A program made the translations under genes and the position numbers. 64,000 bases of DNA from Podarcis bocagei (lineage: Eukaryota), in NCBI GenBank assembly GCA_964188305.1, contig OZ076885.1, one strand, 5' to 3'. The first letter of the stretch is position 1; every line of letters begins with the position of its first letter. The notes beneath the pieces are model-generated. The model worked only from the letters and a program-made list of their open reading frames with translations, had not been told where the DNA came from and made no database searches. This document shows, in pieces, positions 21,780 to 60,486 of this stretch.

Positions 21780-22960
21780 TGCCCTCTACGTACTACACAT
21801 CCGGCGCCTGCCAATGACTTACTTATGTAGCTAAAACTGGGCGCGGATAGTGTACTCTTCTCGCGACAGCTTCTTCCCGGCCTCTCATTCTCCAGTGGCT
21901 ACTCCGATTAAAAATCTACAATTTCCTACCTCTAGGTCAGAAGATTCTTAGCCCACCTACCGTGTGACGCAAAAGCCTATTTTTTTTTTCTTATTGGCTG
22001 TCAGAAACAGAGCTAAGAAGCACGTCGAGAAATGCCAAGAGAAATTCAATGGGACGGGGGGATGTAGAGTTGTGTACCACCGTAGTCCTCGCTGACACTT
22101 CAGTTCTATACAGTATTCTGATCCTTTTTACCACCGAGCTGCAAAGCTATAGAGCGGCGACCATAGAGAATCAGCTTTCGGGTTGGTTGGTTTTTACCGG
22201 AAGTTCAGGCTGCAGGTCACTGTCAATATTGCTCCCCCCCCCATAGGCTAGGCCTATCGCGCTCTAGAAGTGGCGGAAACAGGGACTAGCTGGAACCGGA
22301 AGTAGTTGGAGTGGGAGGGGAGGGAAAGGACGTGGAGGCAGCGGCTCGAGCCGTATCTTCCTCTACCGCAGGTCACGTGGAGGTGGCGCGGTAGCCTCTG
22401 CTTCCACCCCCCACCCCCCTCGGCGGAGCCCGGCGCGGCTGCAGCATGGCGGACACGGCCTCTCAGATGCTGCTGGGCTCCGGCCTCACGGTGCTCTCGC
22501 AGCCGCTCATGTACGTGAAGGTGCTCGTGCAGGTGAGGCCTTCAGTTCTGGCAGGTTTTCCTCGCTCGTGAGGGCGACGAAGGGGGCGGCACTGAGTGGG
22601 TGGGAGGAGGTCAAAGCAGCCCCAGGTTGCCTCCCACCCTCGCTCACTGGGGAAGAAGTTTCCTCCTCGCTCCCAAACGCGTTTCCATGGCAGCGCCCCC
22701 CCCCCCGCGCGTAGCCAGCAGCCCCTCAAAGTAGCAGAGTCGCCCTTCGGCTTGGGTCGTATCCGGGCCTTGCTTTGCTTCAGACTTCCTTTTCGCAGGG
22801 CGGTGGCTGCTCGCCTCCCTGCCCCGAGGCGTAGCAGCAGCGCCGCCGCCCCGGCGGAGGAAAAAGAAAGCCGCTCGTAGGGACGCGGGAAGCGCTACCT
22901 CACTTTCACATCATCCAGACAGCAGGCGCCGTCATTTGCGGTGCAACTTCGCTTTTGAGT
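21780..22960 (+). promoter_or_regulatory. MTCH2 promoter / CpG island
   Basis: CpG-rich region around exon 1; two CCGGAAGT ETS/GABP motifs (22197-22204, 22296-22303), reverse CCAAT near 21993, E-box GTCACGTGG (22372-22380), near-TCTCGCGAGA motif at 21859. Confidence 0.8.
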
Positions 22961-25900
22961 CTTTCTTTATTGCGCTGCCTAGAACCGCAGGTATTGAGGT
23001 GGGTCCGGCGAGGGGAGCACTTGGGAATCAGCAGCCGCAGCGTCTTCTCTTCCAGAGTTGAATGGTTACTTACGAGCCCCCCCTCGAGACTGGTCGAGGG
23101 GAAAGACTTCCCCAGGGTCGAATTTCAGTCCAGTTGCGGTGAACGGCTGGGCAAGGGTCCCTGGGTCCTTTGCAGAGAACCTCCCTGTTGTAGAAAGAAT
23201 GCTTCCTGCGGGGTTTTGCTGCTGTCAAGCACTCCGCCAGCTGCTTGTCACACTCGCATGCCATCCTGCCGCAGATATTTGTGGACTGGCATTCCGTCTC
23301 TGATCCGTTGCATGAGAGTTTGTACCGTTGCCACTTTACCCTGCGGTGACACTTTAAGGATACCCTGGCGTGGCGGTAACAGCAGTCATGAATGAAACAG
23401 CACTGATCCACTGCATCCACGGGGCTTCCAGAACCACCAGTTCCACAGTAGCAGCCATATAGATTGAGTCCTAGCAGTGGGATTTGCAACCGGTGCCGGT
23501 AACACCAGAGGGTCAAAATCAGATCCAAGACACTGCGTTTCTCTCGCTTGCTGCCTTTGCTGTGTCCGCATTCCTGAGAGAACAAAATTGCCAGTGCTAG
23601 CCACAGAACAACCCTCATTGCAGAAGCCACTGTTTAATTTTAGCCAGTTTCAGACTAGCGTACCTCACTCAAATGTTTTTGTGAGCCTGGCTGATTTCTG
23701 AATCTGGATCAGTTTTCTGTGCTGGTTTTATGTGTGCCTCGTATTCAAATTTGTCCTCTTCTCATTTTTATTGGTAGCGTTTCGGACACTCCCAGTAGTT
23801 CCAGCCTCAAGAACTTCTTTATTTACTATATTTGGCTGCATGTTGCTTTTGGCCAGCTGTGGCTTTGTACTCGTATCGTCATTGGCTGAAAAGCATAGCT
23901 GCCCCAGGTACAACAGCCCTGTCTGTTAAAATATTTAACAGCCTGCATATCCACCTTCTAATAAAAAATGCAGGAATGGGAAGCACATTAGCATTTCGGA
24001 GTTTGGATACACAAATTCCTATAATGTAAGTTTCAGAATTTAAGGGCAAAGGACAATTGTGAGACTTTCTGTTATTAGCCTCACAGTGGTTCTCATATGA
24101 TTCACTATACAGAGGATATGTGGAGCTATGTAGTGGGATATCTATCTCAAAAATAAATACCGCCTACCTCTGCCAAGAAAGCACATTGTCTTCTTTGGTA
24201 AATTGGACTTGTGAAACACAGTATCCAATTTGTCCGTAAAACTTTTTGCTAAATTGCAGACCTTGTGAGTTATAAACTATGGAAAACATGTTGTCTAGTA
24301 CAGTGTTTCCCAACCACTGTTCCGCAGCACACTAGTGTGCCGCGAGATGTTGCCTGGTGTGCCGCGAGATGTTGCCTGGAGGGAGGCGGGCGAGTCGGGC
24401 GGCGAGAGGCGGGGCGGCGGCGGCGAGGAGAGGCCGCCCAGCGCGGGGCTCTCGCCGTCTGCCTGCCTGGCTGCCTGCGAGCTCGGCGGGCAGCGCCTCC
24501 GTCCGCAGCGCCCGCCTCGCGGCTCTCATTCCCTGCCCCTGCCAAAGCTCACCCAGCCAAGCCGCGCTCTCCTTCCTGCCTCGCTTTGCTGCCTCCTCCC
24601 CCCCCACCCCCAAAGCTTGGAGGTTCCCCGGCAAGGGGGAGGAAAAAAAATTGAAACTTACACTTTCGTGCGTCCCTCCCGGCGTGACGCTACGCGCTGA
24701 CGTCACGGGGCTGTAATGGTGGTGTGCCTCGAGATTTTTTTCATCAAACAAGTGTGCCTTTGCCCAAAAAAGGTTAGGAAACACTGGTCTAGTATGATAT
24801 ATTGTGACAAGTCAAGTGGCTATTCACAGCATAAAAAGCAAAATAGCTCCATGTTCTCAACTAGTTGTTTAACATTTAATCACAGCAAACTTATCTTCAG
24901 AGTCACCTAGATCACATCAAGGACAAACATTTTAAAATAACTTTACCTGGTTGGAAAAAATGCAGGGGGGAATCACTTTGGAGCGAAGAAGTGGGGGAAT
25001 ATGGTGCAGCGTCTGTGGGGATATATGTTTGGTCTGTATCTCCAAATTTTATTTAAATTATTTATTTCCTGTTCTTTAGCCAAAAAGATTCCCAGAACAT
25101 CTTATGACAGTCACTAGTAAGACATATATATGTATAGCACTAAGAGATGGCACCTGTTATCCAGTGATCTTGCCAGACTTTCTGCTGAACTGCAGACCAC
25201 CCAGACATTTAATGTGAGCTACAAACTGTTACCATCTTCTGAATATAGTGGTTTTAGAACTTTAAACTTACAGTTAGTAGCACAGACATAGAATTCTAAG
25301 AACAAAAAATTGATCATATTTTCTCTTATGGTTCAGTTTTCAAATGTCCAGTGAGTGGAACAGCTGTAGTTGTTCACTGCTAGGGAATGTTGGGGTTATT
25401 CCTTGGGGTGCTGTTCACACTGTAGAGGTTGCTGTAGGCTGTCTCTTTATTTTGAAGGTGGGATATGAACCCCTCCCTCCAACTCTGGGAAGAAATATCT
25501 TTGGGCGACAGGTCTATCAGCTGCCTGGTCTCTTTGCTTATGGTGAGTGCATAATGTATAAGATTTGTGAATGAGCCAGAAAGACTTAAAGCAGGATTGG
25601 ATTGCTGTAATTGTTGCACTGCACTTGGTGGTGCCTATGCCTTTGAAGCAGAGCTTCTCATGTGTACAAGGATTAGCTAGAGATCCTGCAACTGTTGGAA
25701 CAGTGGCAGTTTATATAGGTAAAGTGGTGAGTCTCAACTCTCAAGAAGCTTCAGTGCTATAGCCATGATCATTGGCTTTTGAATTCATGCAGTGAGACAG
25801 AGTTAGAATAACAGGAAAGTACAATGTTTGGGCATCTGAGCCTCTCTCTTCCTGTAGCCTATTGCCCTTCAAGTATCCTTCATATGATTTAGCCTGTGCA

Positions 25901-38769: not shown

Positions 38770-41700
38770 TCACAGCAGAGAAATGGGTGTATGCAGGTCG
38801 TAGGACAGAAAGCAACTAGTAAAGTTGGCTTCAAGGCATTGTAGGGCTCTCTGCATTGATGTGTTGTTTTCCAGGACATCACCATAGACTGGGTAATTGA
38901 GGCTTTGTAGCTTCCTGCCTAGTGCTGCTATCACCAGCTGAATGTAGCCTTTGCCACGGTGTGCTGGCATGGTGTAAGCATGGGTCAGGCACCCAAATTG
39001 ATCCAGCAGGACCCAAGAGATAGGACATCCTCCAGCATCCAGAAGGCAACTACTAGGGAAGCAGTCGATTAGCCGAGTCAGATAGCAGAGACTCTGCTCA
39101 TTGCCGCCTACACTCCAGGTCTCATTCAGCAGGGCAGCATGAGTGGTGTTGAGGGATGAGAGTTTCAGCTCTGATCCTGACCTGAAGAAGGAAAGAAAGG
39201 TAAGGCCTACCTTCAGAAGTAACACTTAAGGCACGATGAACCAGCCAGCTCCAGCACCCAAGTGTCAAGCTTGAAGTCTGCAGATGGAGCTGGGATGCCC
39301 TGCAACCACCTGAAGGTTAACATGACAAAAGGTGTAACTGAGCCCTCTGTGGCTTTCCTAGATCTACGAGCACATGGTGGTGCTTGTTTGATCTCTAGTC
39401 ATGGAGGATGGGAGGCCCTAGCTAGTGTATTATTTATTAAATTTATTCCCTACCGTTATTAGCGAGGGACCCAGTTTTTATGCTGACTTCCTTACTTGGG
39501 CTACATTTTCCCAAAATTAATTAAGGGGGAATGATGAGTGGCATTGTTAGGAGACTATTAAATGCTACCAATGTTGTTTGTTGCTGTACTTGCTGCAACA
39601 GAGTTAAATCTTGAATATTTAGTACAGGCTTCCTCAAACTTGGTCCTTCAGATGTTTTGAGACTACAATTCCCATCATCCCTGACCACTGGTCCTGCTAG
39701 CTAGGGATCATGGGAGTTGTAGGCCAAAAACATCTGGAGGGCCAAGTTTGAGGAAGCCTGATTTAGTGCCAGCAAAGGTTTAGTACAGAGGAGCTCATTA
39801 CATTGTGTAGCTGCTATTAGCCCAGTGGATTCATAGTAGTATAAACTACAGCTATGCTTTTGGTAAGTTGATCCCACTCTACAGGTGAAATGTTTCAGGA
39901 ATATTAACCCTATGAAAGCACAATCCTTTATTGTAATATTTATCAACAGTGATGTTACATTCTAACCTCACCGCCTGCCCAGTTGAATGTCCTGTCCTCC
40001 CCTTCCCATTTTACAAAGGACTTATCCAGTGGCCCTGATAAACATTACTAAGTATCTGCCTTTTGGAAAGCCTACAAATATGATTTACAGAGATCCACAA
40101 ACATTGGCTTACTAGCCAGCCATTGTTTGTGCTTGCTCCTAATCACCTTGCTTGTGTCCTTGGGCATGTGCAGAGTACCTGGGTAAAAAACAGGGATCAT
40201 CTCTTATTTGAATTATGGAAAAAAATCAGAAACATTGAGGAGTCTTTCTGCTGTTACAACTGCCAAGGTCCTTGTCCTTTCTTCCTGAAAAGATAACTCT
40301 GCCTAGCATAAGAGTCACCTCTTGGCTTTGAGTTTATTTCCTCTTGCACATATTTCCCCCTGTTAGAGGTCTCCAGTGAGTGGGCACCATGCTCTAAATT
40401 ACTAGTGCACTGGCAAATGTCTCCTGCCTTCCTTGTATTGCTTGCTACCTGCAACCCCTGAGTCATAGAGCGTGACATACGTGGGTGTGGAAGAAGACAA
40501 ATTCAAGGGTTTCTGCACAACAAAAACCTGGGTCCGAGTCACCAGCTTTGCGGAGAAATGCTTGGCAGCTGCTAGGTTTTGAGATGTCTGATACACACCA
40601 TCCTGCAGACCTGGGTGTGGAAAATGGTGAGGGGATTATTGAGGTGCTCAGAGGAGAGGGGCAGAAGTCGCAGAAACATAGACCACAACTCTATATGATT
40701 ATGGGAAAGGTAAAACGGTGATCACCTCAAGTAAACCTTGCTCTGACTAGCGAAGAGGATTTCAGCAGCACCAAAACTAAGATTTTCTTCCACAGATGCA
40801 GAACAGGTAACAATAACACTTCTCTAAATGCATATGCCAATGCTGAAACAGTTTAGAAAAGTACACACACACTCTTAAAACTTGTGCATACAATATTCCT
40901 TTTTTAAGAATTCTAAATTGGTAGCACTGGCACATGCACAGAACTTTGGGTGTTCAGGTGTCTTACCCTGAAGTAAGAATTCTTGTTTCCAATCAATGGC
41001 ATCAGAATCTTTCACCAATTTCTCATAGGCATCTAGGTCCTTATAGAAAACTGCACAAGATTGGGTAAAATAGTTCATTTCTGAAGGCACTTTCTAGGCA
41101 AAAACAAGCAGGAAAGATGGGAAGAGGTCATTCCTTTGCACACACTAGCCCACCTAGGAGTCTTCGTCTAAAGAGCAGGCTTAAGAAGCTTTAAAATGGG
41201 TGGATAAGTTTTTTTTTTTTTAAATCATAGCAAACCCTCTGCAAGACATAGGCAACCACAGAAAGCACACATTCGATTGCTCATTGATCAGTGGCAAACG
41301 CCCCTCTTCAGATGATGGAGGTGCAATTTGCCTCCAGCCTCAGTTGATCAATCTCATCATTTTTTAATTTCTCCCCTCTTTTTGCTCCTGCTTCCAATAT
41401 CGGGGAGGTCTTTGATCTGATCAGGCCTCTGGGTTGGGTGTTTGCCACCCTTGCTTTAAACCAATTAAATGTTACTATGCAAAATATGTGCAGTTTTTCT
41501 GTTTTAGGGGGCCCAAATGACACCCCCCCCCACTAGCATGTCTGATGTAGAGAACAGCATTTCCCTAGCATTCAGCTGACAGTATTTCACTGCCAGGAAA
41601 ATATGCCCCAGCTCGTACCTCATTTATGAGTGCGTTGTGGAAAGTACTTGTGCAAAGGAGTTAGGCACCTGTTGGGGTGTTGTTGGCACCCTGGCAACAG

Positions 41701-44700
41701 AGAATTTCCTGCACCAATGCTCCATCTCCCAATCCCATCTTCCCCACTATGACTCTTTGTATGTGGCTGTACTCTCCCTTGGGTAAACATGTGCATCATC
41801 CCCCTTTAAAAATAATGGGGCAGACATGTTGCTGCTCCAGCAACAGTGCACAACACCGCTACACTATGAGAGCATAAGTACAAGTTATCAAGCTATAGCA
41901 CTAAATTGAGATTAAGGCTAACATGCAACATTATTGCTAATTGCTTCACTTTCTGCCAGACTGGGCAGGGGATTATGGCTTTGCCTGCCTCTACCTTCTC
42001 TGTTCCCACTGGTAGTGCTTTCTTCGTCCTCACAATTCAAGCCCTTTGCTGATGCTACTCACAGAACCAAGACAAACATCCCTCTCTTGGATGTCCCATC
42101 ACAGCAGTACCTCTCTCTGGAGCCGTGCAATGACCACCTGGAAGCTGGGCCAGGAATCTACCAGTATCTCCTGATGGAAAGCGTTGCCGTGACACACGTT
42201 CAGCACAGCCCCATGGACCTGGTGGGACAAGAGGGAGGAGGCACGGCAGGGTCAGCTATCTTGACGTAACAGAAACAGCAGCATTAAAAGAATTCAGAGT
42301 TTGTAGGGCAGCAGTTGAAGAAGGAGCAAAAAGGGTTTTCTGGTGTGTGTGTGTTTCTTGTGGCTGATTAGCTCTTTTCCCTGTGTAAAGGTCAGAGGGG
42401 GCAGGGTTTCTGTTGAGGCAGGGGATTAGCTGTGGGAGGAGCTTATCAGAGTTTGTAGGGCAGCAGTTGAAGAAGGAGCAAAAAGGGTTTTCTGGTGTGT
42501 GTGTGTTTCTTGTGGCTGATTAGCTCTTTTCCCTGTGTAAAGGTCAGAGGGGGCAGGGTTTCTGTTGAGGCAGGGGATTAGCTGTGGGAGGAGCTTATCA
42601 GAGTTTGTAGGGCAGCAGTTGAAGAAGGAGCAAAAAGGGTTTTCTTGTGTGTGTGTGTTTCTTGTGGCTGATTAGCTGTTTTCTCTGTGTAAAGGTCAGA
42701 GGGGGCAGGGTTTCTGTTGAGGCAGGGGATTAGCTGTGGGAGGAGCTTATCAGAGTTTGTAGGGCAGCAGTTGAAGAAGGAGCAAAAAGGGTTTTCTGGT
42801 GTGTGTGTGTTTCTTGTGGCTGATTAGCTCTTTTCCCTGTGTAAAGGTCAGAGGGGGCAGGGTTTCTGTTGAGGCAGGGGATTAGCTGTGGGAGGAGCTT
42901 ATCAGAGTTTGTAGGGCAGCAGTTGAAGAAGGAGCAAAAAGGGTTTTCTTGTGTGTGTGTGTTTCTTGTGGCTGATTAGCTCTTTTCCCTGTGTAAAGGT
43001 CAGAGGGGGCAGGGTTTCTGTTGAGGCAGGGGATTAGCTGTGGGAGGAGCTTATCAGAGTTTGTAGGGCAGCAGTTGAAGAAGGAGCAAAAAGGGTTTTC
43101 TGGTGTGTGTGTGTTTCTTGTGGCTGATTAGCTCTTTTCCCTGTGTAAAGGTCAGAGGGGGCAGGGTTTCTGTTGAGGCAGGGGATTAGCTGTGGGAGGA
43201 GCTTATCAGAGTTTGTAGGGCAGCAGTTGAAGAAGGAGCAAAAAGGGTTTTCTTGTGTGTGTGTGTTTCTTGTGGCTGATTAGCTCTTTTCCCTGTGTAA
43301 AGGTCAGAGGGGGCAGGGTTTCTGTTGAGGCAGGGGATTAGCTGTGGGAGGAGCTTATCAGAGTTTGTAGGGCAGCAGTTGAAGAAGGAGCAAAAAGGGT
43401 TTTCTGGTGTGTGTGTGTTTCTTGTGGCTGATTAGCTCTTTTCCCTGTGTAAAGGTCAGAGGGGGCAGGGTTTCTGTTGAGGCAGGGGATTAGCTGTGGG
43501 AGGAGCTTATCAGAGTTTGTAGGGCAGCAGTTGAAGAAGGAGCAAAAAGGGTTTTCTGGTGTGTGTGTGTTTCTTGTGGCTGATTAGCTCTTTTCCCTGT
43601 GTAAAGGTCAGAGGGGGCAGGGTTTCTGTTGAGGCAGGGGATTAGCTGTGGGAGGAGCTTATCAGAGTTTGTAGGGCAGCAGTTGAAGAAGGAGCAAAAA
43701 GGGTTTTCTGGTGTGTGTGTGTTTCTTGTGGCTGATTAGCTCTTTTCCCTGTGTAAAGGTCAGAGGGGGCAGGGTTTCTGTTGAGGCAGGGGATTAGCTG
43801 TGGGAGGAGCTTATCAGAGTTTGTAGGGCAGCAGTTGAAGAAGGAGCAAAAAGGGTTTTCTGGTGTGTGTGTGTTTCTTGTGGCTGATTAGCTCTTTTCC
43901 CTGTGTAAAGGTCAGAGGGGGCAGGGTTTCTGTTGAGGCAGGGGATTAGCTGTGGGAGGAGCTTATCAGAGTTTGTAGGGCAGCAGTTGAAGAAGGAGCA
44001 AAAAGGGTTTTCGGGTGTGTGTGTGTTTCTTGTGGCTGATTAGCTCTTTTCCCTGTGTAAAGGTCAGAGGGGGCAGGGTTTCTGTTGAGGCAGGGGATTA
44101 GCTGTGGGAGGAGCTTATCAGAGTTTGTAGGGCAGCAGTTGAAGAAGGAGCAAAAAGGGTTTTCTGGTGTGTGTGTGTTTCTTGTGGCTGATTAGCTCTT
44201 TTCCCTGTGTAAAGGTCAGAGGGGGCAGGGTTTCTGTTGAGGCAGGGGATTAGCTGTGGGAGGAGCTTATCAGAGTTTGTAGGGCAGCAGTTGAAGAAGG
44301 AGCAAAAAGGGTTTTCTGGTGTGTGTGTGTTTCTTGTGGCTGATTAGCTCTTTTCCCTGTGTAAAGGTCAGAGGGGGCAGGGTTTCTGTTGAGGCAGGGG
44401 ATTAGCTGTGGGAGGAGCTTATCAGAGTTTGTAGGGCAGCAGTTGAAGAAGGAGCAAAAAGGGTTTTCTGGTGTGTGTGTGTTTCTTGTGGCTGATTAGC
44501 TCTTTTCCCTGTGTAAAGGTCAGAGGGGGCAGGGTTTCTGTTGAGGCAGGGGATTAGCTGTGGGAGGAGCTTATCAGAGTTTGTAGGGCAGCAGTTGAAG
44601 AAGGAGCAAAAAGGGTTTTCTGGTGTGTGTGTGTTTCTTGTGGCTGATTAGCTCTTTTCCCTGTGTAAAGGTCAGAGGGGGCAGGGTTTCTGTTGAGGCA

Positions 44701-47700
44701 GGGGATTAGCTGTGGGAGGAGCTTATCAGAGTTTGTAGGGCAGCAGTTGAAGAAGGAGCAAAAAGGGTTTTCTGGTGTGTGTGTGTTTCTTGTGGCTGAT
44801 TAGCTCTTTTCCCTGTGTAAAGGTCAGAGGGGGCAGGGTTTCTGTTGAGGCAGGGGATTAGCTGTGGGAGGAGCTTATCAGAGTTTGTAGGGCAGCAGTT
44901 GAAGAAGGAGCAAAAAGGGTTTTCTGGTGTGTGTGTGTTTCTTGTGGCTGATTAGCTCTTTTCCCTGTGTAAAGGTCAGAGGGGGCAGGGTTTCTGTTGA
45001 GGCAGGGGATTAGCTGTGGGAGGAGCTTATCAGAGTTTGTAGGGCAGCAGTTGAAGAAGGAGCAAAAAGGGTTTTCTGGTGTGTGTGTGTTTCTTGTGGC
45101 TGATTAGCTCTTTTCCCTGTGTAAAGGTCAGAGGGGGCAGGGTTTCTGTTGAGGCAGGGGATTAGCTGTGGGAGGAGCTTATCAGAGTTTGTAGGGCAGC
45201 AGTTGAAGAAGGAGCAAAAAGGGTTTTCTGGTGTGTGTGTGTTTCTTGTGGCTGATTAGCTCTTTTCCCTGTGTAAAGGTCAGAGGGGGCAGGGTTTCTG
45301 TTGAGGCAGGGGATTAGCTGTGGGAGGAGCTTATCAGAGTTTGTAGGGCAGCAGTTGAAGAAGGAGCAAAAAGGGTTTTCGGGTGTGTGTGTGTTTCTTG
45401 TGGCTGATTAGCTCTTTTCCCTGTGTAAAGGTCAGAGGGGGCAGGGTTTCTGTTGAGGCAGGGGATTAGCTGTGGGAGGAGCTTATCAGAGTTTGTAGGG
45501 CAGCAGTTGAAGAAGGAGCAAAAAGGGTTTTCTGGTGTGTGTGTGTTTCTTGTGGCTGATTAGCTCTTTTCCCTGTGTAAAGGTCAGAGGGGGCAGGGTT
45601 TCTGTTGAGGCAGGGGATTAGCTGTGGGAGGAGCTTATCAGAGTTTGTAGGGCAGCAGTTGAAGAAGGAGCAAAAAGGGTTTTCTGGTGTGTGTGTGTTT
45701 CTTGTGGCTGATTAGCTCTTTTCCCTGTGTAAAGGTCAGAGGGGGCAGGGTTTCTGTTGAGGCAGGGGATTAGCTGTGGGAGGAGCTTATCAGAGTTTGT
45801 AGGGCAGCAGTTGAAGAAGGAGCAAAAAGGGTTTTCTGGTGTGTGTGTGTTTCTTGTGGCTGATTAGCTCTTTTCCCTGTGTAAAGGTCAGAGGGGGCAG
45901 GGTTTCTGTTGAGGCAGGGGATTAGCTGTGGGAGGAGCTTATCAGAGTTTGTAGGGCAGCAGTTGAAGAAGGAGCAAAAAGGGTTTTCTGGTGTGTGTGT
46001 GTTTCTTGTGGCTGATTAGCTCTTTTCCCTGTGTAAAGGTCAGAGGGGGCAGGGTTTCTGTTGAGGCAGGGGATTAGCTGTGGGAGGAGCTTATCAGAGT
46101 TTGTAGGGCAGCAGTTGAAGAAGGAGCAAAAAGGGTTTTCTGGTGTGTGTGTGTTTCTTGTGGCTGATTAGCTCTTTTCCCTGTGTAAAGGTCAGAGGGG
46201 GCAGGGTTTCTGTTGAGGCAGGGGATTAGCTGTGGGAGGAGCTTATCAGAGTTTGTAGGGCAGCAGTTGAAGAAGGAGCAAAAAGGGTTTTCTGGTGTGT
46301 GTGTGTTTCTTGTGGCTGATTAGCTCTTTTCCCTGTGTAAAGGTCAGAGGGGGCAGGGTTTCTGTTGAGGCAGGGGATTAGCTGTGGGAGGAGCTTATCA
46401 GAGTTTGTAGGGCAGCAGTTGAAGAAGGAGCAAAAAGGGTTTTCTGGTGTGTGTGTGTTTCTTGTGGCTGATTAGCTCTTTTCCCTGTGTAAAGGTCAGA
46501 GGGGGCAGGGTTTCTGTTGAGGCAGGGGATTAGCTGTGGGAGGAGCTTATCAGAGTTTGTAGGGCAGCAGTTGAAGAAGGAGCAAAAAGGGTTTTCTGGT
46601 GTGTGTGTGTTTCTTGTGGCTGATTAGCTCTTTTCCCTGTGTAAAGGTCAGAGGGGGCAGGGTTTCTGTTGAGGCAGGGGATTAGCTGTGGGAGGAGCTT
46701 ATCAGAGTTTGTAGGGCAGCGGCGCGCGCCTAGCGGCGCGCGCAGTTATATCCATCTTTTAGATTTAGGGGAGCTAGTCTCAAACGTTTGTTGGGGGAGA
46801 CCTAGGTTTTTTTTGTGTGTGTGTGTGTGGGCGAAGTTATTTGTCCTGTCTTCAAGCTTTTTATGATGGAGGACCTCTGTAGCCACCCCCAACAACACGA
46901 TCTCAAGATGGAAGGGGAGGGAACAGCTGCAGTCGCCTGCGATTCCTGCGCAATGTTTGCCATCTTGCCAAAGGTTGCAGGCAGCTTCACCTGCAGCAAT
47001 TGCATGTTGATTGCCCTTTTAAAAGACAAAGTCCAGCAACTGGAGGAACGTGTAGCTACGCTCCAAAGAATTAGAGAGCTGGAGCTCTTCTTGGAAGCAA
47101 CAGAGCACACCGTCCCCACCAAGGAGGAGACAGGGGACTCCCCTGAGAAGGAGGCTAGTTCATCAACACAGGAGCCAGATATATGGAGAAACGTGACTCA
47201 AAGAAGTAGGAGGCCCAGGGTTCACTCTGATTGTTTAGAAATACACAATCGCTTTGAGGTCCTCTCCCCTAGCATGGAAGACGAAGAGCAGACTCCATTT
47301 GAGGATCTCTCCCTCATTACAGTCGATCAGGTATATGAAGACGAGCAGCAAAGTCAGTCCTCAGGGAATGTGCAGGCGACCTTGGAACGGACAGCTCACG
47401 GAAGAACCCCGACCAAACCCAAGAGGAGGCGTGTAGTGGTGATAGGGGATTCCCTACTGAGGGGAACAGAAGCAGTGATCTGTGGGCCTGACAAGATGTC
47501 TCGGGAAGTGTGCTGTCTCCCCGGGGCTAAGATCCAAGATGTAACTGAACGACTGCAAGGAATCATAAAACCCACTGACAAATACCCCTTCCTCTTGGTT
47601 CATGTGGGAACCAATGACACTGCAAGCAATAGCCTCCAGAAGATCAAAAGAGACTACGAGGCTCTCGGCAGGAAATTGAAGCAACTAAATGCACAAATTG

Positions 47701-50700
47701 TCATCTCGTCTGTCCTCCCAGTTGAACGACGTGGCCCAGGGAGAGAGGGGAAAATAGTGGAAGTGAACAGCTGGCTTCGCAAATGGTGTAAACAGGAACG
47801 GTTTGGATTCTTAGATCACGGACTGCAGTTTCTTGAAGATGGACTTCTGGCAAGTGATGGGCTGCACCTCACAACGGTTGGGAGGAATGTTTTTGCCAAA
47901 AATCTCAGAAACCTCATCAGGAGGGCTTTAAACTGACTAATGTGGGGGAGGGAGACAGTGCTCCTGAAGGTAGGAGTCTATCAATTAATGAAGATGATCA
48001 TCCAAATGTCATAGACCAAATGGAGCAAACAGCACACGGACCTAGTGGTGGGAGGAAAAAATCCTTAAATAAGAGACACGGGGGAATGATTAATGGACTT
48101 CAATGTCTGTACACTAATGCGCAAAGCATGGGAAATAAACAAGATGAGCTTGAGCTCTTGGTACAGCAAACTAAATATGACATAATAGGCATCACTGAAA
48201 CCTGGTGGGATAAGTCCCACGATTGGAATGTAATAATGGGGGGATACAATCTATTTCAGAGAAACAGACCAGACAAGAAAGGAGGAGGAGTGGCGTTATA
48301 TGTCAGGGATGTGTATACCTGTGAAGAGATCCAAGATTTAGAACCTCAAAGCCAATGTGAGAGCATTTGGGTCAAAATTAAGGGAGAGAAGAATAACAGA
48401 GACCTCATTGTGGGAGTTTACTATAGATCCCCAAGCCAAACGGAGGACATAGATGATGCCTTCCTGGAACAGATGGCCAAGCATGCAAAAGGAAGGGAGA
48501 TAGTAGTAATGGGGGACTTCAATTACCCGGATATTTGTTGGACGTCAAACTCAGCCAAGAGCATAAGGTCAAACAGATTCCTCACTGGCCTTGCAGACAA
48601 CTTCATTGTCCAGAAAGTGGGAGAAGCAACAAGAGGAACAGCCATTTTAGATCTGGTCCTAACCAATGTTGATGACCTGGTTAGTGGGGTAGAAGTGGAA
48701 GGATCATTAGGCGCGAGTGATCATGCTCTTCTGAAGTTTACTATACAGCGGAAAGGAGCAGCCAAGCATACTAGGACTCAATTTCTTGACTTTAAGAAAG
48801 CCGACTTCATAAAACTTAGGGAAGTGCTGGGTGAGATCCCATGGACAGCAATACTAAAAGGAAAGGGAGTTCATGATGGCTGGGAGTTTGTTAAGAGGGA
48901 GATAGTAAAAGCACAACGTCAGGCAATACCAATGAGACGGAAACATGGAAGGTGCCTAAAGAAGCCAGGGTGGCTATCTAAAGAACTTTTAACTGAATTA
49001 AGATTAAAAAAGGATGTGTACAAAAAATGGAAAAGGGGGAAACCACCAAAGAGGAATTCAAACAAATAGCCAGAACGTGTAGACACAAAGTCAGAAAAGC
49101 TAAAGCACAGAATGAACTCAGGCTTGCTAGAGAGGTTAAAAGCAACAAAAAAGGCTTTTATGGGTATGTTCGTAGCAAAAGGAAGAACAAAGAAACAGTG
49201 GGGTCACTCAGAGGAGAAGATGGTGAAATGCAAACAGGGGACACAGAAAGGGCTGAACTCCTCAATGCCTTCTTTGCCTCAGTCTTCTCCGATAAAGAAA
49301 ACAATGCCCGACCTGAAGAATTTGGAGCAAATGATTCAGCAAAGGAAACACAGCCCAGAATAACTAAGGAGACAGTACAAGAATATTTGGCTAGTTTAGA
49401 TGTATTCAAGTCTCCAGGGCCAGATGAACTGCATCCAAGAGTATTAAAAGAACTGGCAGATGTGATCTCAGAACCACTGGCAGTCATCTTCGAGAAATCC
49501 TGGAGAACAGGCGAAGTCCCGGCAGACTGGAGGAGGGCAAATGTTGTCCCTATTTTCAAAAAGGGGAAAAGAGAGGACCCAAATAATTACCGCCCAGTCA
49601 GTCTGACATCAATAGCAGGGAAGATTCTGGAGCAGATCATTAAGCAAACAGTCTGTGAGCACCTAGAAAGGAATGCTGTGATCACCGATAGTCAGCATGG
49701 ATTTCTGAAAAATAAGTCATGTCAGACTAACCTGATCTCATTTTTTGACAGAATTACAAGCCTGGTAGATGAAGGGAACTCAGTGGATATAGCCTATCTT
49801 GATTTCAGCAAGGCATTTGACAAGGTGCCCCATGATATTCTTGTAAAGAAGCTGGTAAAATGCGGTCTTGACTCTGCTACCACTCAGTGGATTTGTAACT
49901 GGCTGACTGACCGAACCCAAAGGGTGCTCATCAATGGTTCCTCTTCATCCTGGAGAAGAGTGACTAGTGGGGTGCCACAGGGTTCTGTCTTGGGCCCGGT
50001 CTTATTTAACATCTTTATCAACGACTTGGATGATGGACTCAAGGGCATCCTGATCAAATTTGCAGATGACACCAAACTGGGAGGGGTGGCTAACACCCCA
50101 GAGGACAGGATCACACTTCAAAACGACCTTGACAGATTAGAGAACTGGGCAAAAACAAACAAGATGAATTTTAACAGGGAGAAATGTAAAGTATTGCACT
50201 TGGGCAAAAAAAATGAGAGGCACAAATACAAGATGGGTGACACCTGGCTTGAGAGCAGTACATGTGAAAAGGATCTAGGAGTCTTGGTTGACCACAAACT
50301 TGACATGAGCCAACAGTGTGACACGGCAGCTAAAAAAGCCAATGCAATCCTGGGCTGCATCAATAGGAGTATAGCATCTAGATCAAGGGAAGTAATAGTG
50401 CCACTGTATTCTGCTCTGGTCAGACCACACCTGGAGTACTGTGTCCAGTTCTGGGCACCACAATTCAAGAAGGACACTGACAAACTGGAACGTGTCCAGA
50501 GGAGGGCAACCAAAATGGTCAAAGGCCTGGAAACGATGCCTTATGAGGAACGGCTAAGGGAGCTGGGCATGTTTAGCCTGGAGAAGAGGAGGTTAAGGGG
50601 TGATATGATAGCCATGTTCAAATATATAAAAGGATGTCACATAGAGGAGGGAGAAAGGTTGTTTTCTGCTGCTCCAGAGAAGCGGACACGGAGCAATGGA

Positions 50701-51388
50701 TCCAAACTACAAGAAAGAAGATTCCACCTAAACATTAGGAAGAACTTCCTGACAGTAAGAGCTGTTCGACAGTGGAATTTGCTGCCAAGGAGTGTGGTGG
50801 AGTCTCCTACTTTGGAGGTCTTTAAGCAGAGGCTTGACAACCATATGTCAGGAGTGCTCTGATGGTGTTTCCTGCTTGGCAGGGGGTTGGACTCGATGGC
50901 CCTTGTGGTCTCTTCCAACTCTATGATTCTATGATTCTATGATTCTATGTGTTCCTGGTTTCTTTCAAATGTCGCCTGTCAGTTTTGTGGCCAGCCTTGC
51001 TGTTAACCTTGTCAGTGGTCAGTTGATCCATGAAGCCAACAGTGAGTCATGACACTGCCAGCCCAACCTTATCTGCCATTTTCTGGAAAGCCCTTGTGCC
51101 CAGAGTACAGTTCCTTGATCCCCTGGCATTTCCAGCTCTAAAGGATAAGAAATAAACCACTACTCCCTTCCCTCAGATTCTTGGATTGAAGAGGTATCTA
51201 TCACAGACTGGGCTCCTGGTGGTGTTCACATTAAGCTTTGAGTTGGATTCATTGCCCAAGCAGAGGTTCTGCATCTGCCTGGCAAAGAGCAGAGGAGGAT
51301 GCCATCTCACCTTTAGAGATTCGGGGAAGCAGCTCCTCAGCTCTTTCTTCAGCACTCGAAGATCATCCTTGTTGACTAACACCAGCAT
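38770..51388 (-). CDS. Glycine N-acyltransferase-like protein (GLYATL3-like), 284 aa, 5 coding exons
   Basis: Minus-strand exons 51388-51311, 42218-42111, 41093-40967, 40610-40481, 39181-38770; GT-AG, total 855 nt. Protein [58 protein letters not shown]...AVFYKD...[14 protein letters not shown]...[15 protein letters not shown]...FPSSCLLD...[23 protein letters not shown]...PVY carries GLYAT-family/GNAT motifs. Exact orthology uncertain. Confidence 0.92.
39625..39760. mobile_element. Palindromic hAT MITE (same family as 33872)
   Basis: TIRs CAGGCTTCCTCAAACTTGG / CCAAGTTTGAGGAAGCCTG; TSD atttagta/atttagtg (7 of 8 match). Confidence 0.88.
42294..46720 (+). repeat. Tandem array of 152-bp monomers, about 29.1 copies
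   Basis: ttgtagggcagc recurs at 42301, 42453 ... 44581 (15x152) ... 46709 (29x152). Units are near-identical; I saw variants only in units 3, 5, 7, 12 and 21. Confidence 0.98.
46863..47936 (+). CDS. CR1 ORF1p (Zn finger, coiled coil, SGNH/GDSL esterase), 357 aa
   Basis: CDSC...CSNC zinc finger, heptad-like [22 protein letters not shown], and SGNH blocks [17 protein letters not shown] and DGLH. First ATG is at 46863. Confidence 0.92.
   Translation: MMEDLCSHPQQHDLKMEGEGTAAVACDSCAMFAILPKVAGSFTCSNCMLIALLKDKVQQLEERVATLQRIRELELFLEATEHTVPTKEETGDSPEKEASSSTQEPDIWRNVTQRSRRPRVHSDCLEIHNRFEVLSPSMEDEEQTPFEDLSLITVDQVYEDEQQSQSSGNVQATLERTAHGRTPTKPKRRRVVVIGDSLLRGTEAVICGPDKMSREVCCLPGAKIQDVTERLQGIIKPTDKYPFLLVHVGTNDTASNSLQKIKRDYEALGRKLKQLNAQIVISSVLPVERRGPGREGKIVEVNSWLRKWCKQERFGFLDHGLQFLEDGLLASDGLHLTTVGRNVFAKNLRNLIRRALN
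47942..50862 (+). pseudogene. CR1 ORF2 (APE endonuclease + reverse transcriptase) split by one frameshift near 49031-49040
   Basis: EN motifs LYTNAQS, ITETW, GGGV, MGDFN, LDLVL, SDH in 47942-49069; RT motifs [37 protein letters not shown] in 49027-50862. Adding one base in aaaaggggg restores [13 protein letters not shown]. Confidence 0.9.
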
Positions 51389-55600: not shown

Positions 55601-58600
55601 TCCTGCCTTCGAGATGGAGGGATTCTTCCCCCACCTCGCCCATAAATGTGCATTTTGCAAGCTGTGCTTCCAGTCCACTTCGAATATGTGACGGGTTAAT
55701 CCCGAGGGGGGGAAGGAAGTATGGGGGGTCTTGTTTATTTAATAAAATGTATACACTGCTTGGGGGACGCGGGTGGCGCTGTGGTCTAAACCACAGAGCC
55801 TAGGGCTTGCCGATCAGAAGGTCGGCGGTTCCCCAAAGCATCAATTGATGCAAGAGGCCGTGCCCCAACCTTCAAAACAGGATCATATTTGCAGTGAGAA
55901 CAGACTTGGTGCTTGTAAACTGAATATGTGCATTAAAACAGGATAAAGCCACATCTGTGCTACCAGTAAACACTTTACAGATTAATCTACATAATTGGAT
56001 AGTGAAGACACTTGACGTGTGTTTTGCTTCTCCCAGTCGTAGTATGCGTGAGAGAAACCTTTATTCCTTTAAGAAGGGCCATAGGTGAGTAGCGGGTCAG
56101 GTGCTTTGTATGCAGATTCTGCACCAGGCATCTCCAATTAAAAGGAACAGATAGGAAGGGAGAGGAAAGGGCCGCCTCTTCCCGAGACCCTGTTGAGCAG
56201 CTGCTGCTAGTCAGAGCACACAACCCGAAACTAGGGGGCAAATAGTCTGATCTGCTATAAAGTAGCTTCCTGGGATAAAAGTCACCTAAGCCACCTTCAG
56301 CTAGCAGCAGATCTGTGTTTATAAGATGCTGAAGCCCCTTCCTGCATTTACACTTCCCAATGCAGTAACTCCCCCCCCCTTTATTCTCTGCCTGAGAAAC
56401 TGGGGGACAGAGATATTTAAACAAGTTATTTTTATTTGCTGTGTAATTCCCCTACAGCTTCATGAATATCAGTTTCTTCTGGCTCAGTAGCTTGTGAGAC
56501 CTGCTGCTCAATCCACCCGCATAGCAGTATGGTATGGTGAGTGGGCTGGTACAGGCTTGTGTTTAAGTCGTAGCCATGGGTGGCCAGGACGTGCATGTAG
56601 GTGAGTGAATGGGCTAGCAGAGGAGGGAATGGAGTGCTCTGTTCCTCTGCATCCAGCTTGGTACTGCAACTCTCCAGTCTTTCTTTGCCAGCCCCCAGCT
56701 GGCTAATAAACATTTTTGCAGGTAACTTTTCTGGGCTTGTTTACAACCCTGGGCTAGGACTTTCTATATCTATTTGCCTGTTGATTTGACCAGTTATTTA
56801 AATGAATGTTGAGAATCAAATTTGTATTTATTTAATGCTTCCCCTATAAAATCCCAAAGTGATTTAGCAACATCCATATGTGTGTGTGTACACATGTCAA
56901 GGACAGATACAGACAGGGGGGTGGGGTGGAACTCCACTTGAAAGGCTTATTGTAGAAAATGAAGGTTATTTGATAGGCACCAAAAAGATGAAAGAGTTGG
57001 TGCCTGCTTGATGCCATGAAAGGGAGCTTCATAGGGTAGGTACCACCATGTTAAAGGTCTAGTTCCTACAGTGCATGGAATGGATCAGCTAATAAGCTGA
57101 AATTTCTACAAACTCTGTTCTGAGCTTGATTGCACTAACTCTGTCACTTGTATACAGTGAGGGCAATGTACTGTGCTATTAGCTTTATTCATCATATTAG
57201 AAGTTGGTGTAATACCACGTCAGTCCCTTGATCCAACCACTCTGCTTCCCCTTCTCTTCAGGTGACCTTCCACTACCGCACACTGCTCTGCAGTCCGGAC
57301 CAGCGAGTCTTGGATGACAGCCGTACCCGAGGGAAGCCCATGGAGCTCATCATTGGCAAGAAATTCAAGCTGCCCGTTTGGGAGACTATCCTGCACACCA
57401 TGAGAGAGGGAGAGATGGCTGAGTTCTTGTGTGACACAAAGGTAATCCTTGTGGGATGATCAGCCTCATAGAATTGTTGAGTTGGAAGGGACCACGAGGG
57501 TCATCTAGTCCAATCCCCTGCAGTGCAGGAAGTGGGGCTCAAACCCATGACCTTGAGATTAAGAGTCTCCTGCTGTACCAACTGAGCTATCATAGAAACA
57601 ACATTCTTAAGTCTTAATTAATGCATGTAAGGGTTAATACCACAGAATAAGCTGTCTTGCCAGGCTTAGTTAGGTCACTTCCCCTTAGGTCATCAAGCCT
57701 ATTGTTCTAACCTCCACACACATCTACCTGAGAAGCTCAGCATGGCTCTCACAAACCACTATTTTGAATTCCTAGACCAATCATTTAGAAACTTTAACCA
57801 CTTTGTAACTTAGCCAACTTTTAGTGTCTGTGCAACTTTATGAAGCCATTTGAAGTCAGTAAACCATTTTTAACTTACCCAATGTGTGGTCTTTTTCTAT
57901 GTTAGGGGAGGAGGAAAACTTTGGAAGGAGCTTGGAAGGGTGTATTATGAAGGTCTAACAACTTATATTTCCACACTTTATTTTGCTGTATATTTTGCTA
58001 TTTTAAATCTGCTGGGGTTCTCTCACTAAACAGTACGTGTCTCAAACTTGGATCTTGGCATCCAGGTACTCTTCTTTCTATATACCTATTTTTAACTTGA
58101 ACCCAGAATCCCCACTTCTGCTGCAAGCTAGCTTGGTCTAGTGTGGGAAGTGGCTTAGACATACCAGGCCAGGAAAGGCCTCTTCCCTAACCCTGGCATC
58201 TGTAGTTTCCCTAACACATCCTTATGCTTTCTTGGTGCAGAATTGGAGTTTCCTTAGCTGCAGCTTTCAGGATTCTCCTTCCACAACTCACAACTAAGTA
58301 TTTGGATCTGGCACAGGTGATGGAATGCCAGATTTGTTCTTTTTTGGAGAGACAATACATCATTTTGCATGTGCACAAAATTTTATCTCATATCTTTGGG
58401 GCTGATGGTATTCCCTGGGAGAGCTTCTTCTCTCCTAGCAAGAAGGACTATGCCTGATCTTTTCTTTCTTTCTCTCCAGCATGTGGTCTTGTACCCAATG
58501 GTGTCAAAGAGCTTGAGGAACATTGCGGCTGGGAAAGATCCACTGGAGGGACAACGGCATTGCTGTGGCATTGCTCAGATGCATGAGCATCACTCCCTGG

Positions 58601-60486
58601 GTTACCCAGACCTCGATGAGCTGCAGCAGAACCCCCAGCCCCTCATCTTTGCCATTGAGATGCTCAAGGTGAGGGGAAGGAAAGGTGAGGTCCTCTGGGA
58701 CAGTCAGAATCAGGAGAGTGATGACTCTCTTGTGTATTTGAGAGTTTCTCCTGTATGTGGGTGTATGGATGTGCAAGAAGGGAGGAGAAAGCTGATTCCC
58801 AACAGATCTGTCTTGGTCTCCACTTTTATTTTCTTGGCTACGTACATGAGATGATTTTGCTAGCTTTTTAAAGGTACCACACAGGGATGAAGCAGCAGCT
58901 GCCTACTGAGAACCCTCCTATTATCTCACTTCCTCCCAGTTTCATAAATCTCATCAAAGACTGGTTTTTTATTACCTGTACCCTGGGATGCGGAAGGCAC
59001 ACAGTCAGACGGGCTCTTACAGTGCTCACATTGCCCCCACTAACCCAGCCTGTTGCCTTTGTGCCTCGCTTAGGTGGAAGTTCCTGGCACATACCGGCAA
59101 GATCCTTGGGCCATGTCCGATGACGAGAAAGTGAAGGCCGTGCCCCTGATCCACCAGGAAGGCAATGAGCTCTACAAGGAAGGCAAAGTGCAGGAGGCAG
59201 CTGCCAAGTACTACGATGCCATCGCTTGCCTCAAGAACCTGCAGATGAAGGTGAGTGAAGGCGCGTCTTCCTCACACCCTAGTGCAGCTTCACTTTTGTC
59301 TACACATTTGTGTTAAGAGGGTGGGTGTGTCAGCTCCAGATGTAGCAGGGATCCCACTTCCCTTGCATCATGCTGCAGAGTCAGATGTGAGGTGGATTGA
59401 TAAGCAGGGTTGGCACCGCATAAAGGGCAGCCCTTCTTCCTGTGCAGTTCCTCCCCTGTCTTTCATTCCATAAGGTCTGCTCTGATGGCAGGGCTTCCAG
59501 GAGGCCACTCCTTTTCAGTCAACAGGGCCCTTGGTTGTGCTGCCCAGCCATCATGGCACTTCTGTTCTCATATGTAGGGGAACCTTTGAAATCCTCCAGC
59601 TGTGCCTCACGCTCCTTTCCTTGTCCTGTACCCCAGGAGCAGCCCGGATCCCCAGACTGGATCCAGCTGGACCAACAAATCACCCCTTTGCTGCTGAATT
59701 ACTGCCAGTGTAAGCTGTTGAACGAGGAGTATTACGAGGTGCTGGATCACTGCTCCTCTATTCTCAACAAGTATGAAGGTAAGGCATTTTGCTGGCCACA
59801 CCATGCCCTAGTGGGGAATGGGAAGCAGCTCTGAAAATAGGGAGTTGTGGGATTTGATTAATCTAACTTTGTGTTGCGAGGGACTGCATGTGGGGGCAGA
59901 GGCAACCTACTGTGGTTTTAGAGAGCCAGCGTGGTATAGTGGTTAACGTGTTGGACTAGGACCTGGGAGACCAGGGTGCACATCTCTCAGACATGAAGCT
60001 CACTGGGTGACCTTGTGCTATGCTAGTCACTGTCTCCTAGCCTATCCAACCTCACAGGGTTGTGAAGATAAAATGAGAAGGAGACAACCCTGGTGCACCA
60101 CCTGGGGGATAGGTGTGATATGTGTCATTTTAAATAAATAAGAGAGTCCTTGCATGTAACTGGGGTTGAGGGGGGAGCTTTGTATTGTGCCCTGGTTGAA
60201 AGTGGAATAGAGCACTGGGTGGGCCTGGTCAGAGTGTACGGAGCCTGCCTGCATTACTCAGGTGCTGGCTCTCCCCGCAGATAACGTCAAAGCCTACTTC
60301 AAGCGAGCCAAGGCCCATGCTGCTGTTTGGAATGCAACCGAAGCGCAGGCTGACTTTGCCAAGGTCTTGCAGCTGGATCCGTCGTTGGGCCCTGTGGTTG
60401 CCCGGGAGCTGCGTAGCCTGGAGACCCGCTTACGTCAGAAAGAAGACGAGGACAAGATCCGTTTCAAAGGCATATTCTCTCAGTAG
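55300..60486 (+). CDS. AIP: AH receptor-interacting protein (FKBP-like + TPR co-chaperone), 330 aa, 6 exons
   Basis: Exons 55300-55398, 57262-57441, 58480-58668, 59074-59250, 59637-59778, 60281-60486 (993 nt). Protein [16 protein letters not shown]...TFHYRTL...[18 protein letters not shown]...[27 protein letters not shown]...[18 protein letters not shown]...RFKGIFSQ. Confidence 0.97.
55764..55831 (+). mobile_element. Sauria-type SINE 5' fragment
   Basis: gggacgcgggtggcgctgtggtctaaaccacagagcctagggcttgccgatcagaaggtcggcggttc, then an abrupt end. Confidence 0.8.
57467..57590 (-). mobile_element. tRNA-Lys(CTT)-derived SINE with CR1-type 3' tail
   Basis: Reverse complement atagctcagttggtacagcaggagactcttaatctcaaggtcatgggtttgagccccac resembles tRNA-Lys-CTT; its tail ggattggactagatgaccctcgtggtcccttccaactcaacaattctatg resembles the CR1 3' UTR. 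tcatagaa is duplicated at both ends. Confidence 0.82.
59921..60140 (+). mobile_element. tRNA-derived squamate SINE (Squam3-like)
   Basis: gagagccagcgtggtatagtggttaa..gttggactaggacctgggagaccaggg head, gaagctcactgggtgaccttg core, and taaataaataa tail. Confidence 0.75.

Follow-up and report, generated by a model that had tools for sequence, protein, structure and literature searches.

A single-exon secreted phospholipase A2 gene inside a lizard gene, from an apparently unnamed branch of the family kept from sharks to lizards

The nested gene, its predicted product and its transcripts

The window analysed here, a stretch of 64,000 nucleotides from the lizard Podarcis bocagei, carries a secreted phospholipase A2 (sPLA2) gene that lies antisense within the first intron of another gene (Table 1). 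From its exon sequence, we take this host gene to be MTCH2. The nesting of one gene in the other, proposed by an initial annotation made from the letters alone, was confirmed by RNA. Spliced reads joined position 22530 to position 25456 in two raw stranded runs (112 and 98 reads, respectively), spanning the GT..AG intron that contains the PLA2 reading frame, and the same joint was present in contigs of five further runs. A Pfam search with the 29 residues encoded by host exon 1 gave no match.

Table 1. Coordinates of the PLA2 gene and of the host exons around it (positions in the window)
Feature	Position	Strand	Description and basis
Host coding exon 1	22446..22532	+	29 aa; spliced reads
Host intron 1, with the antisense PLA2 inside	22533..25457	+	GT..AG, 2925 bases; spliced reads and contigs
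Host exon 2	25458..25542	+	spliced reads
Candidate polyadenylation signal AATAAA	22966..22971	-	99 bases past the PLA2 stop
PLA2 coding sequence	23070..23618	-	ATG at 23618, stop at 23070; single exon without intron, 182 aa and stop; one unbroken genomic match
Likely signal peptide	23559..23618	-	about residues 1-20; boundary set by eye; helix 2-17 in the model; hydrophobic leaders in orthologs
Short propeptide with REKR end (23546-23535)	23535..23558	-	predicted furin-type cleavage site
Mature core	23151..23534	-	128 aa with a net charge of +8; 16 Cys arranged as in group X; calcium loop YGCYCGTGG
Catalytic His49 and calcium-binding Asp50	23385..23390	-	kept in 36/36 family members
Asp96, dyad partner	23247..23249	-	kept in 36/36 family members
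Basic patch, mature residues 54-72	23319..23375	-	sequence; family alignment
Tail	23073..23150	-	26 residues; proximal part partly conserved; distal part variable, low model confidence

The frame opens with a hydrophobic leader and its product matches Pfam PF00068 (E 1.8e-27). Recomputed on 23073-23546, the mature chain begins right after REKR with its first base at 23534 and comprises 154 residues, including 16 Cys at positions 11, 28, 30, 45, 46, 51, 52, 62, 75, 82, 88, 93, 95, 102, 121 and 128. It contains 7 Lys and 16 Arg (23 in total) versus 6 Asp and 6 Glu (12), giving a net charge of +11 and a computed pI of 9.07; the core alone has 19 basic and 11 acidic residues (net +8, pI 8.8) and the tail adds +3. 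Two sequons are present, NGS at 76 and NWT at 134. All the counts given in the initial annotation (the REKR site, Cys11, the 16 Cys, 23 versus 12 charged residues, the 26-residue tail and the sequons) were right when recomputed. The calcium loop, His49, Asp50, Tyr53, Tyr71 and Asp96 are intact, and His49 and Asp50 correspond to the canonical His48 and Asp49, and Asp96 to the canonical Asp99. In the available text of PMC3111613, conventional sPLA2s are described by the motifs XCGXGG and DXCCXXHD. They have six conserved disulfides and up to two more. Here the two motifs read YCGTGG and DQCCFIHD, and both are found in all 36 members of the family considered below. An AlphaFold2 model (mean pLDDT 68.8, pTM 0.65) showed the sPLA2 helices, with low confidence in the propeptide and in residues 167-182. 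Foldseek searches with this model returned sPLA2s at E values from 3e-8 to 1e-6, and its top PDB matches were a pancreatic enzyme engineered to carry the disulfides of group X, and human group X itself.

The PLA2 frame sits at the edge of the CpG island of the host gene. Read depth over the frame was 0-0.19 in the two stranded raw runs, versus about 55 on host exon 1, from a sample of about 12% of each run that cannot demonstrate silence of the PLA2. Contigs covered the frame in runs X2, X7, X10 and X11, from four studies, and in X5; these runs were retrieved using the window stretch itself and their contigs carry no strand. The X2 and X7 contigs extend over other parts of the intron, so that unspliced host RNA may explain their coverage of the frame. 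The upper ends of the contigs, at 23687-23736, and a lone 637-base contig from X10 give a weak hint of a transcript belonging to the PLA2 itself, whose expression may be tissue-restricted or inducible.

Several other elements were noted in the window. A GC- and CpG-rich, repeat-like insert occupies 24300-24800 in the host intron, upstream of the PLA2 start, and one related run skips 494 bases within it. A tandem array at 42294-46720, in which a unit of 152 bases is repeated 29.1 times with the copies 99% alike, lies immediately before a LINE at 46806-50859 on the plus strand, presumably CR1-like, with an esterase-type ORF1, an endonuclease and a reverse transcriptase in three frames. The window also contains one or more exons of a glycine N-acyltransferase-like gene (38773-39225, minus strand) and of a gene with an AIP-like FKBP domain (58321-58851, plus strand).

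Other sPLA2 genes of the genome and distribution of the family

When the genome was searched for PF00068, 33 of 39 candidates matched. The window PLA2 alone matched in one piece, the remaining sPLA2 loci matching exon by exon, and since a single full match was found, a second copy of the gene was rejected. The multi-exon sPLA2 genes consist of two IB-like genes on contig C16, four group II genes at C7:64.86-64.89 Mb, one further gene at C7:74.7 Mb and two group-X-like genes of three exons each, on C14 and C6. In addition, a two-domain PF00068 gene on C8 is presumably otoconin-like. The gene at C7:74.7 Mb (G000:C7:74735548-74737662; L014, L016, L032) encodes a divergent 14-Cys sPLA2 that has a long branch and stands outside the group II cluster. 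The C6 gene (G000:C6:75230621-75233300; L036) has a net charge of +7 and a 17th Cys near its end, and it groups with python and bird proteins named 'phospholipase A2-like' (P0154, P0149), which suggests that group X is represented by two paralogs in sauropsids.

The PLA2G10 ortholog is the three-exon gene on C14, whose queried exon is 98% identical to the annotated PLA2G10 of Podarcis muralis. That protein scored 160-176 bits against human group X structures, the next family reaching 109, versus 68-70 bits for the window PLA2, which is below the scores of pancreatic enzymes. Identity between the window PLA2 and the PLA2G10 of the same genome is 37%, and 15 of the identical positions are Cys. 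NTAN1 shares the contig of the C14 gene at a distance of 5.9 Mb, and close PLA2G10 synteny was not found there. Because the genome has a separate multi-exon PLA2G10 and the two trees described below place the family outside the group X clade, orthology of the window PLA2 with PLA2G10 was rejected. The suggestion that the protein represents a distinct subgroup was thus borne out, by the separate PLA2G10 gene as well as by the clade of its own.

The comparison of charge and tail covered the 10 PLA2G10-type proteins returned, five of them complete squamate models. These five had net charges of -8, +2, -3, -2 and -11 and ended 3-4 residues past the last Cys, and two bird and one wrasse protein were similar (net -2, +1 and -4; 1-3 residues past the last Cys). 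Two aberrant squamate models had 15 and 10 Cys, with net charges of +4 and -6. Reptile PLA2G10 orthologs therefore do not share the charge (-11 to +2) or the tail (3-4 residues) of the window PLA2. The initial annotation had also called the enzyme strongly cationic. It is indeed cationic, with a core of +8, but this charge is moderate and not unique among the sPLA2 genes of the lizard: the C6 gene has +7, and three of the four group II genes, as read from the genome here, have +8, +11 and +13, the +11 value including a long uncertain end.

Of the 69 candidates from a single-sequence search with the window PLA2, 34 were homologs at E<=1e-10, which argues against a chance match, and a search with the family profile found 44 homologs among 1369. 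When 1.84 billion representatives were searched with the profile, family members scored 173-307 bits before a fall to 123; between the family and this drop there were two proteins of other groups with two to four domains, whose scores are summed over domains. Lizards, snakes, an amphisbaenian and turtles are represented among the named members, as are frogs, a newt and caecilians and, further, the coelacanth, sturgeons, paddlefish, sharks and rays. No named mammal, bird, crocodilian or teleost member was among the matches listed (members of 30 clusters). Absence from these groups is not proven by this, since the reach of the word-based search is limited, several matches are unnamed and, in the 50% library, members are hidden by their representatives. 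In databases, members carry venom or pancreatic names with the ending '-like', such as 'crotoxin basic subunit-like' or 'taipoxin alpha chain-like', and some sturgeon records were automatically labelled group 10. A search of the ESM Atlas returned generic PLA2 clusters only. Venom names of this kind are given automatically in lizards, turtles, frogs and sharks that are not venomous, and surveys of genomes or transcriptomes may therefore count the gene among the toxins by mistake.

A literature search found no description of the gene; most subscription papers lay outside the search, and supplements may include the gene unnamed, possible examples being the PLA2 tree of the habu genome (31 non-venom genes) and a Pla2g2 preprint. 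The search also found no paper linking MTCH2 with Pla2g and synteny. MTCH2 and group X are not mentioned in the available portion of bioRxiv 10.1101/583344, nor is MTCH2 in that of PMC13578310, and the accessible parts of PMC4314415, PMC6062510, PMC9837156 and PMC9680080 contain no account of the gene. The family is apparently an unnamed branch of secreted PLA2 that has been kept from sharks to lizards.

Conservation, phylogeny and origin of the family

Conservation was analysed in 36 members. Five mispredicted or truncated models (P0028, P0029, P0030, P0031 and P0087) were dropped, and two fragments (P0035 and P0114) as well as P0002, which is near-identical, were left out. The 16 Cys and the catalytic residues were invariant in all 36. 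A furin motif (R-x-x-R) preceded the mature start in 35 members, the core had a net charge of at least +3 in 33 (median +7) and the tail comprised at least 12 residues in 35, so the furin motif, the cationic core and the tail are kept among orthologs. Neither of the two outcomes that the initial annotation had named as refuting was therefore seen. The three non-cationic members, two from Xenopus and one frog paralog (cores of -5, 0 and 0), indicate that charge is not essential everywhere in the family. Basic residues at positions 13, 15, 57, 67, 90, 97, 107 and 117 were retained in 33-36 of the 36 members, and Trp10 and Trp68 in 32 each. Within the basic patch, the well kept basic residues were limited to Arg57 (Lys or Arg in 34/36), Lys67 (34/36) and Arg65 (29/36). 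In the Anolis sagrei member P0007 the mature chain directly follows the leader with no furin motif, which reflects either a real loss or a gene-model error.

Conservation of the tail was confined to its first 13 residues or so, in which Pro129, Asn134 and Thr136 (as Asn134-x-Thr136), Ile138 and Trp141 recur and the rest varies. A sequon lay inside the first nine tail residues in 24 of the 36 members. Of the two sequons reported for the window PLA2, both present, NGS is not conserved and was found in 3 of the 35 proteins compared. Across the family, tails have net charges from -1 to +13 and range from short and neutral in squamates and sharks to 50-60 residues with Lys/Arg runs in most frogs. 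The proposed Pro/Arg tail does not stand as a conserved feature, as the distal part is variable and Arg139 is replaced by Leu in P. raffonei and in contigs of three related runs. A set of frog members (P0011, P0013-P0017, P0019-P0021, P0024, P0025, P0027 and P0238) has tails of 45-61 residues with net charges of +7 to +13, and by sequence their Lys/Arg runs resemble additional cleavage sites for convertases, or peptides of heparin-binding or antimicrobial type.

The core of the window PLA2 is 79% identical to that of Anolis and 85% to that of Rhineura, compared with 70% and 68% for PLA2G10 in the same pairs, and it is still 55% identical to the core of a shark member. At least 11 differences were listed in relatives (eight on the core and leader side and three in the tail), of which six are silent and five are replacements, three of these in the tail. 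A silent processed pseudogene, with a frame that stays open by chance or through the overlapping CpG island, would account for the lack of introns, the near-zero depth in two raw RNA runs and the CpG-rich setting. We consider this very unlikely, given that the frame is open and the catalytic residues are invariant across the jawed-vertebrate range, that none of the at least 11 listed differences hits a Cys or a catalytic residue and that contigs cover the frame in runs of four studies.

In a tree of 38 rows, whose bootstrap was not fully settled, the 21 family rows fell on one side of a branch with a support of 100/100 and a stem of 2.81. A second tree of 127 rows, a quick one built on few alignment columns, joined the family to a lineage of acidic cartilaginous-fish proteins with 16 Cys (SH-aLRT 99). 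In it the family fell outside X, II and IB, and its neighbours there (support 93, unstarred) were proteins of sea urchin, tunicate, wasp and mite as well as unnamed ones. The acidic sister lineage (P0092, P0242, P0243 and P0244; 16 Cys, net -2 to -6) was seen in cartilaginous fishes only, and no separate copy of it was found in the lizard genome. These results do not fit the hybrid architecture put forward by the initial annotation: the family forms one old clade on a long stem and bears no sign of a contribution from group IIA or IIF. The superficial mix of features in the window PLA2 could suggest a recent reptile chimera, or a derived PLA2G10 that acquired an IIA-like charge and an IIF-like tail. 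However, orthologs with like features occur in sharks, sturgeon, coelacanth and amphibians, PLA2G10 exists separately, and the IIF extension bears one extra Cys according to the available text of PMC3111613, as opposed to none in the tail of the window PLA2, all of which makes such an origin extremely improbable. A recent hybrid origin was rejected by the distribution of orthologs, unless those matches are non-orthologous.

The position of the family relative to group X was less sharply defined. AU tests on 52 rows rejected none of the constrained groupings, with p values of 0.343 for the family with group X, 0.205 with group II and 0.176 with group IB. A dibasic propeptide together with Cys11 was found in 50 of the 134 profile-search rows scanned, invertebrates included. 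The HDCC Cys was present in 17 of these 50, mostly group X, and was absent in the six neighbours that were checked, all of them from non-vertebrates or unnamed. The family might have arisen by a very early duplication as the sister of group X, and it could then be filed as a group-X paralog instead of a new group, a possibility that we take seriously without favouring it. Propeptide, Cys11 and an extra C-terminal disulfide pair are common to both, the AU test does not reject the pairing, the HDCC Cys is missing in those six neighbours, the top structural matches are of group X type and some sturgeon records bear the automatic group 10 label. On the other hand, identity to the PLA2G10 of the same genome is low and owes 15 positions to Cys, the free trees put the family outside groups X and II, and both locus and gene structure differ. 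Moreover, the dibasic propeptide and Cys11 are also found in sea urchin, tunicate and mite proteins and are for that reason probably ancestral.

On the simplest reading of the sequences, the propeptide and Cys11 would be ancestral, the C-terminal disulfide would be common to the family and to groups X and II, and the family would have left the group X/II stem early, probably by retroposition. The source would have been an early group-X/II-like transcript, retroposed before sharks and bony fishes split. We lean towards the view that the family is an unnamed group of conventional sPLA2 in vertebrates, whose single-exon gene arose by retroposition, became fixed in the first MTCH2 intron before that split and has been strongly constrained, with an acidic sister in cartilaginous fishes and with separate losses in mammals, birds and teleosts. 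The single exon and the intron position were read in this genome only. If this view is true, the classification into groups I, II, V and X, based on mammals, missed the family because it was lost in mammals, birds and teleosts.

Proposed function and comparison with known sPLA2 groups

We judge it likely that the window PLA2 is an intact single-exon pro-enzyme gene, belonging to an old jawed-vertebrate clade of its own apart from PLA2G10, with a predicted furin-type cut and a probable calcium-dependent hydrolysis on anionic surfaces. The product would be secreted, and a furin-type protease would cut it at REKR, freeing the N-terminal helix as in group X, an enzyme activated on loss of its propeptide (PMC3111613, available text). 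The mature protein would hold eight disulfides, with the pairing suggested by alignment with group X, and would likely hydrolyse phospholipids through a calcium-dependent His-Asp mechanism on negatively charged extracellular surfaces. Docking to the membrane may occur via a hydrophobic face composed of Val2, Leu3, Trp10, Leu20, Leu21 and Trp68 and ringed by the eight conserved Lys/Arg positions listed above. This basic ring would favour anionic lipid, as in bacterial membranes or exposed phosphatidylserine, as well as retention on heparan sulfate; the conserved tryptophans may permit some hydrolysis of phosphatidylcholine (PC). The tail is predicted to be glycosylated and mostly dispensable. 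Heparan sulfate binding by group IIA depends on overall charge, and an interfacial Trp promotes PC hydrolysis (PMC7583969, accessible part). Group IIA kills Gram-positive bacteria via hydrolysis of their anionic membranes (PMC9304279, accessible part).

Our single best guess from these features, put forward tentatively, would be a surface-defence role on anionic membranes. Pure defence is opposed by the moderate charge, which is common to the C6 gene and three group II genes of the lizard and absent in Xenopus. The family evolves slowly, which is easier to reconcile with a constant substrate or partner in the host than with an arms race against microbes. Close behind the defence reading, and equally tentative, would be a role in host-cell lipid-mediator signalling. 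The same gene of the same clade would then encode a convertase-activated signalling enzyme of mainly group-X-like action, freeing fatty acids and lysophospholipids from PC-rich host membranes, its charge merely holding it near cells. This possibility, which we rate as real though not preferred, is consistent with the group X skeleton and propeptide, with the retention of Trp10 and Trp68 in 32 of 36 members each, with the promotion of PC hydrolysis by interfacial Trp (PMC7583969, accessible part), with slow evolution and with the existence of acidic members and an acidic sister lineage. Against it, human group X has a Trp at the second residue past the conserved Tyr, and this position is Leu73 here and Phe, Leu or Tyr in the family, and the eight basic positions are retained in 33-36 of 36 members.

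The conventional classification of sPLA2 (groups I, II, V and X) rests on mammals and venomous snakes, and an extra clade of jawed-vertebrate age alters the reconstruction of the ancestral sPLA2 set. A propeptide and 16 Cys alone are insufficient to define group X. The family also provides a natural comparison for the ways in which the choice of membrane by sPLA2s depends on charge, on interfacial tryptophan and on activation by convertases. Altogether, we regard it as a new branch, or subgroup, of a well-understood enzyme family, which would work like a cationic group X.

Group X (PLA2G10; PDB 1le6, 4uy1 and 6g5j) resembles the window PLA2 in its basic-residue propeptide, its 16 Cys in the same order, with the Cys of both group I- and group II-type disulfides present, its calcium loop, its His-Asp dyad and its fold. 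The window PLA2 is, however, 33-37% identical to group X, occupies a separate locus and has a single exon in place of three mature-coding exons. It also carries three extra residues before the calcium loop and after Cys52, has a long tail (26 residues) and lacks Trp at the group X position, and it is cationic, whereas human group X has 10 Lys/Arg versus 15 Asp/Glu (hand count from the alignment). The pancreatic enzymes of group IB share the propeptide and Cys11 and gave the top raw PDB scores (76-78 bits for natural enzymes). In contrast to them, the window PLA2 lacks the pancreatic loop, seen as an alignment gap, and has the HDCC Cys and a C-terminal extension that are absent in IB; of the features of IB membership (pancreatic loop, 14 Cys and no C-terminal extension), it shows none.

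Group IIA (PLA2G2A; PDB 1ayp and 1n29) has in common with the window PLA2 a cationic surface, the disulfide pattern of the C-terminal extension and probably a preference for anionic membranes. It differs in sitting in the PLA2G2 cluster (C7 here), the family lying outside that clade and having a conserved Trp. Group IIA has no propeptide and no Cys11; neither was shown by the lizard group II genes, and the window PLA2 has both. Human IIA is far more basic than a net charge of +7 to +8. Group IIF, finally, has a C-terminal extension of similar length. Its extension contains one additional Cys, as described in the available text of PMC3111613, whereas the tail of the window PLA2 has no Cys and no homology between the two was shown.
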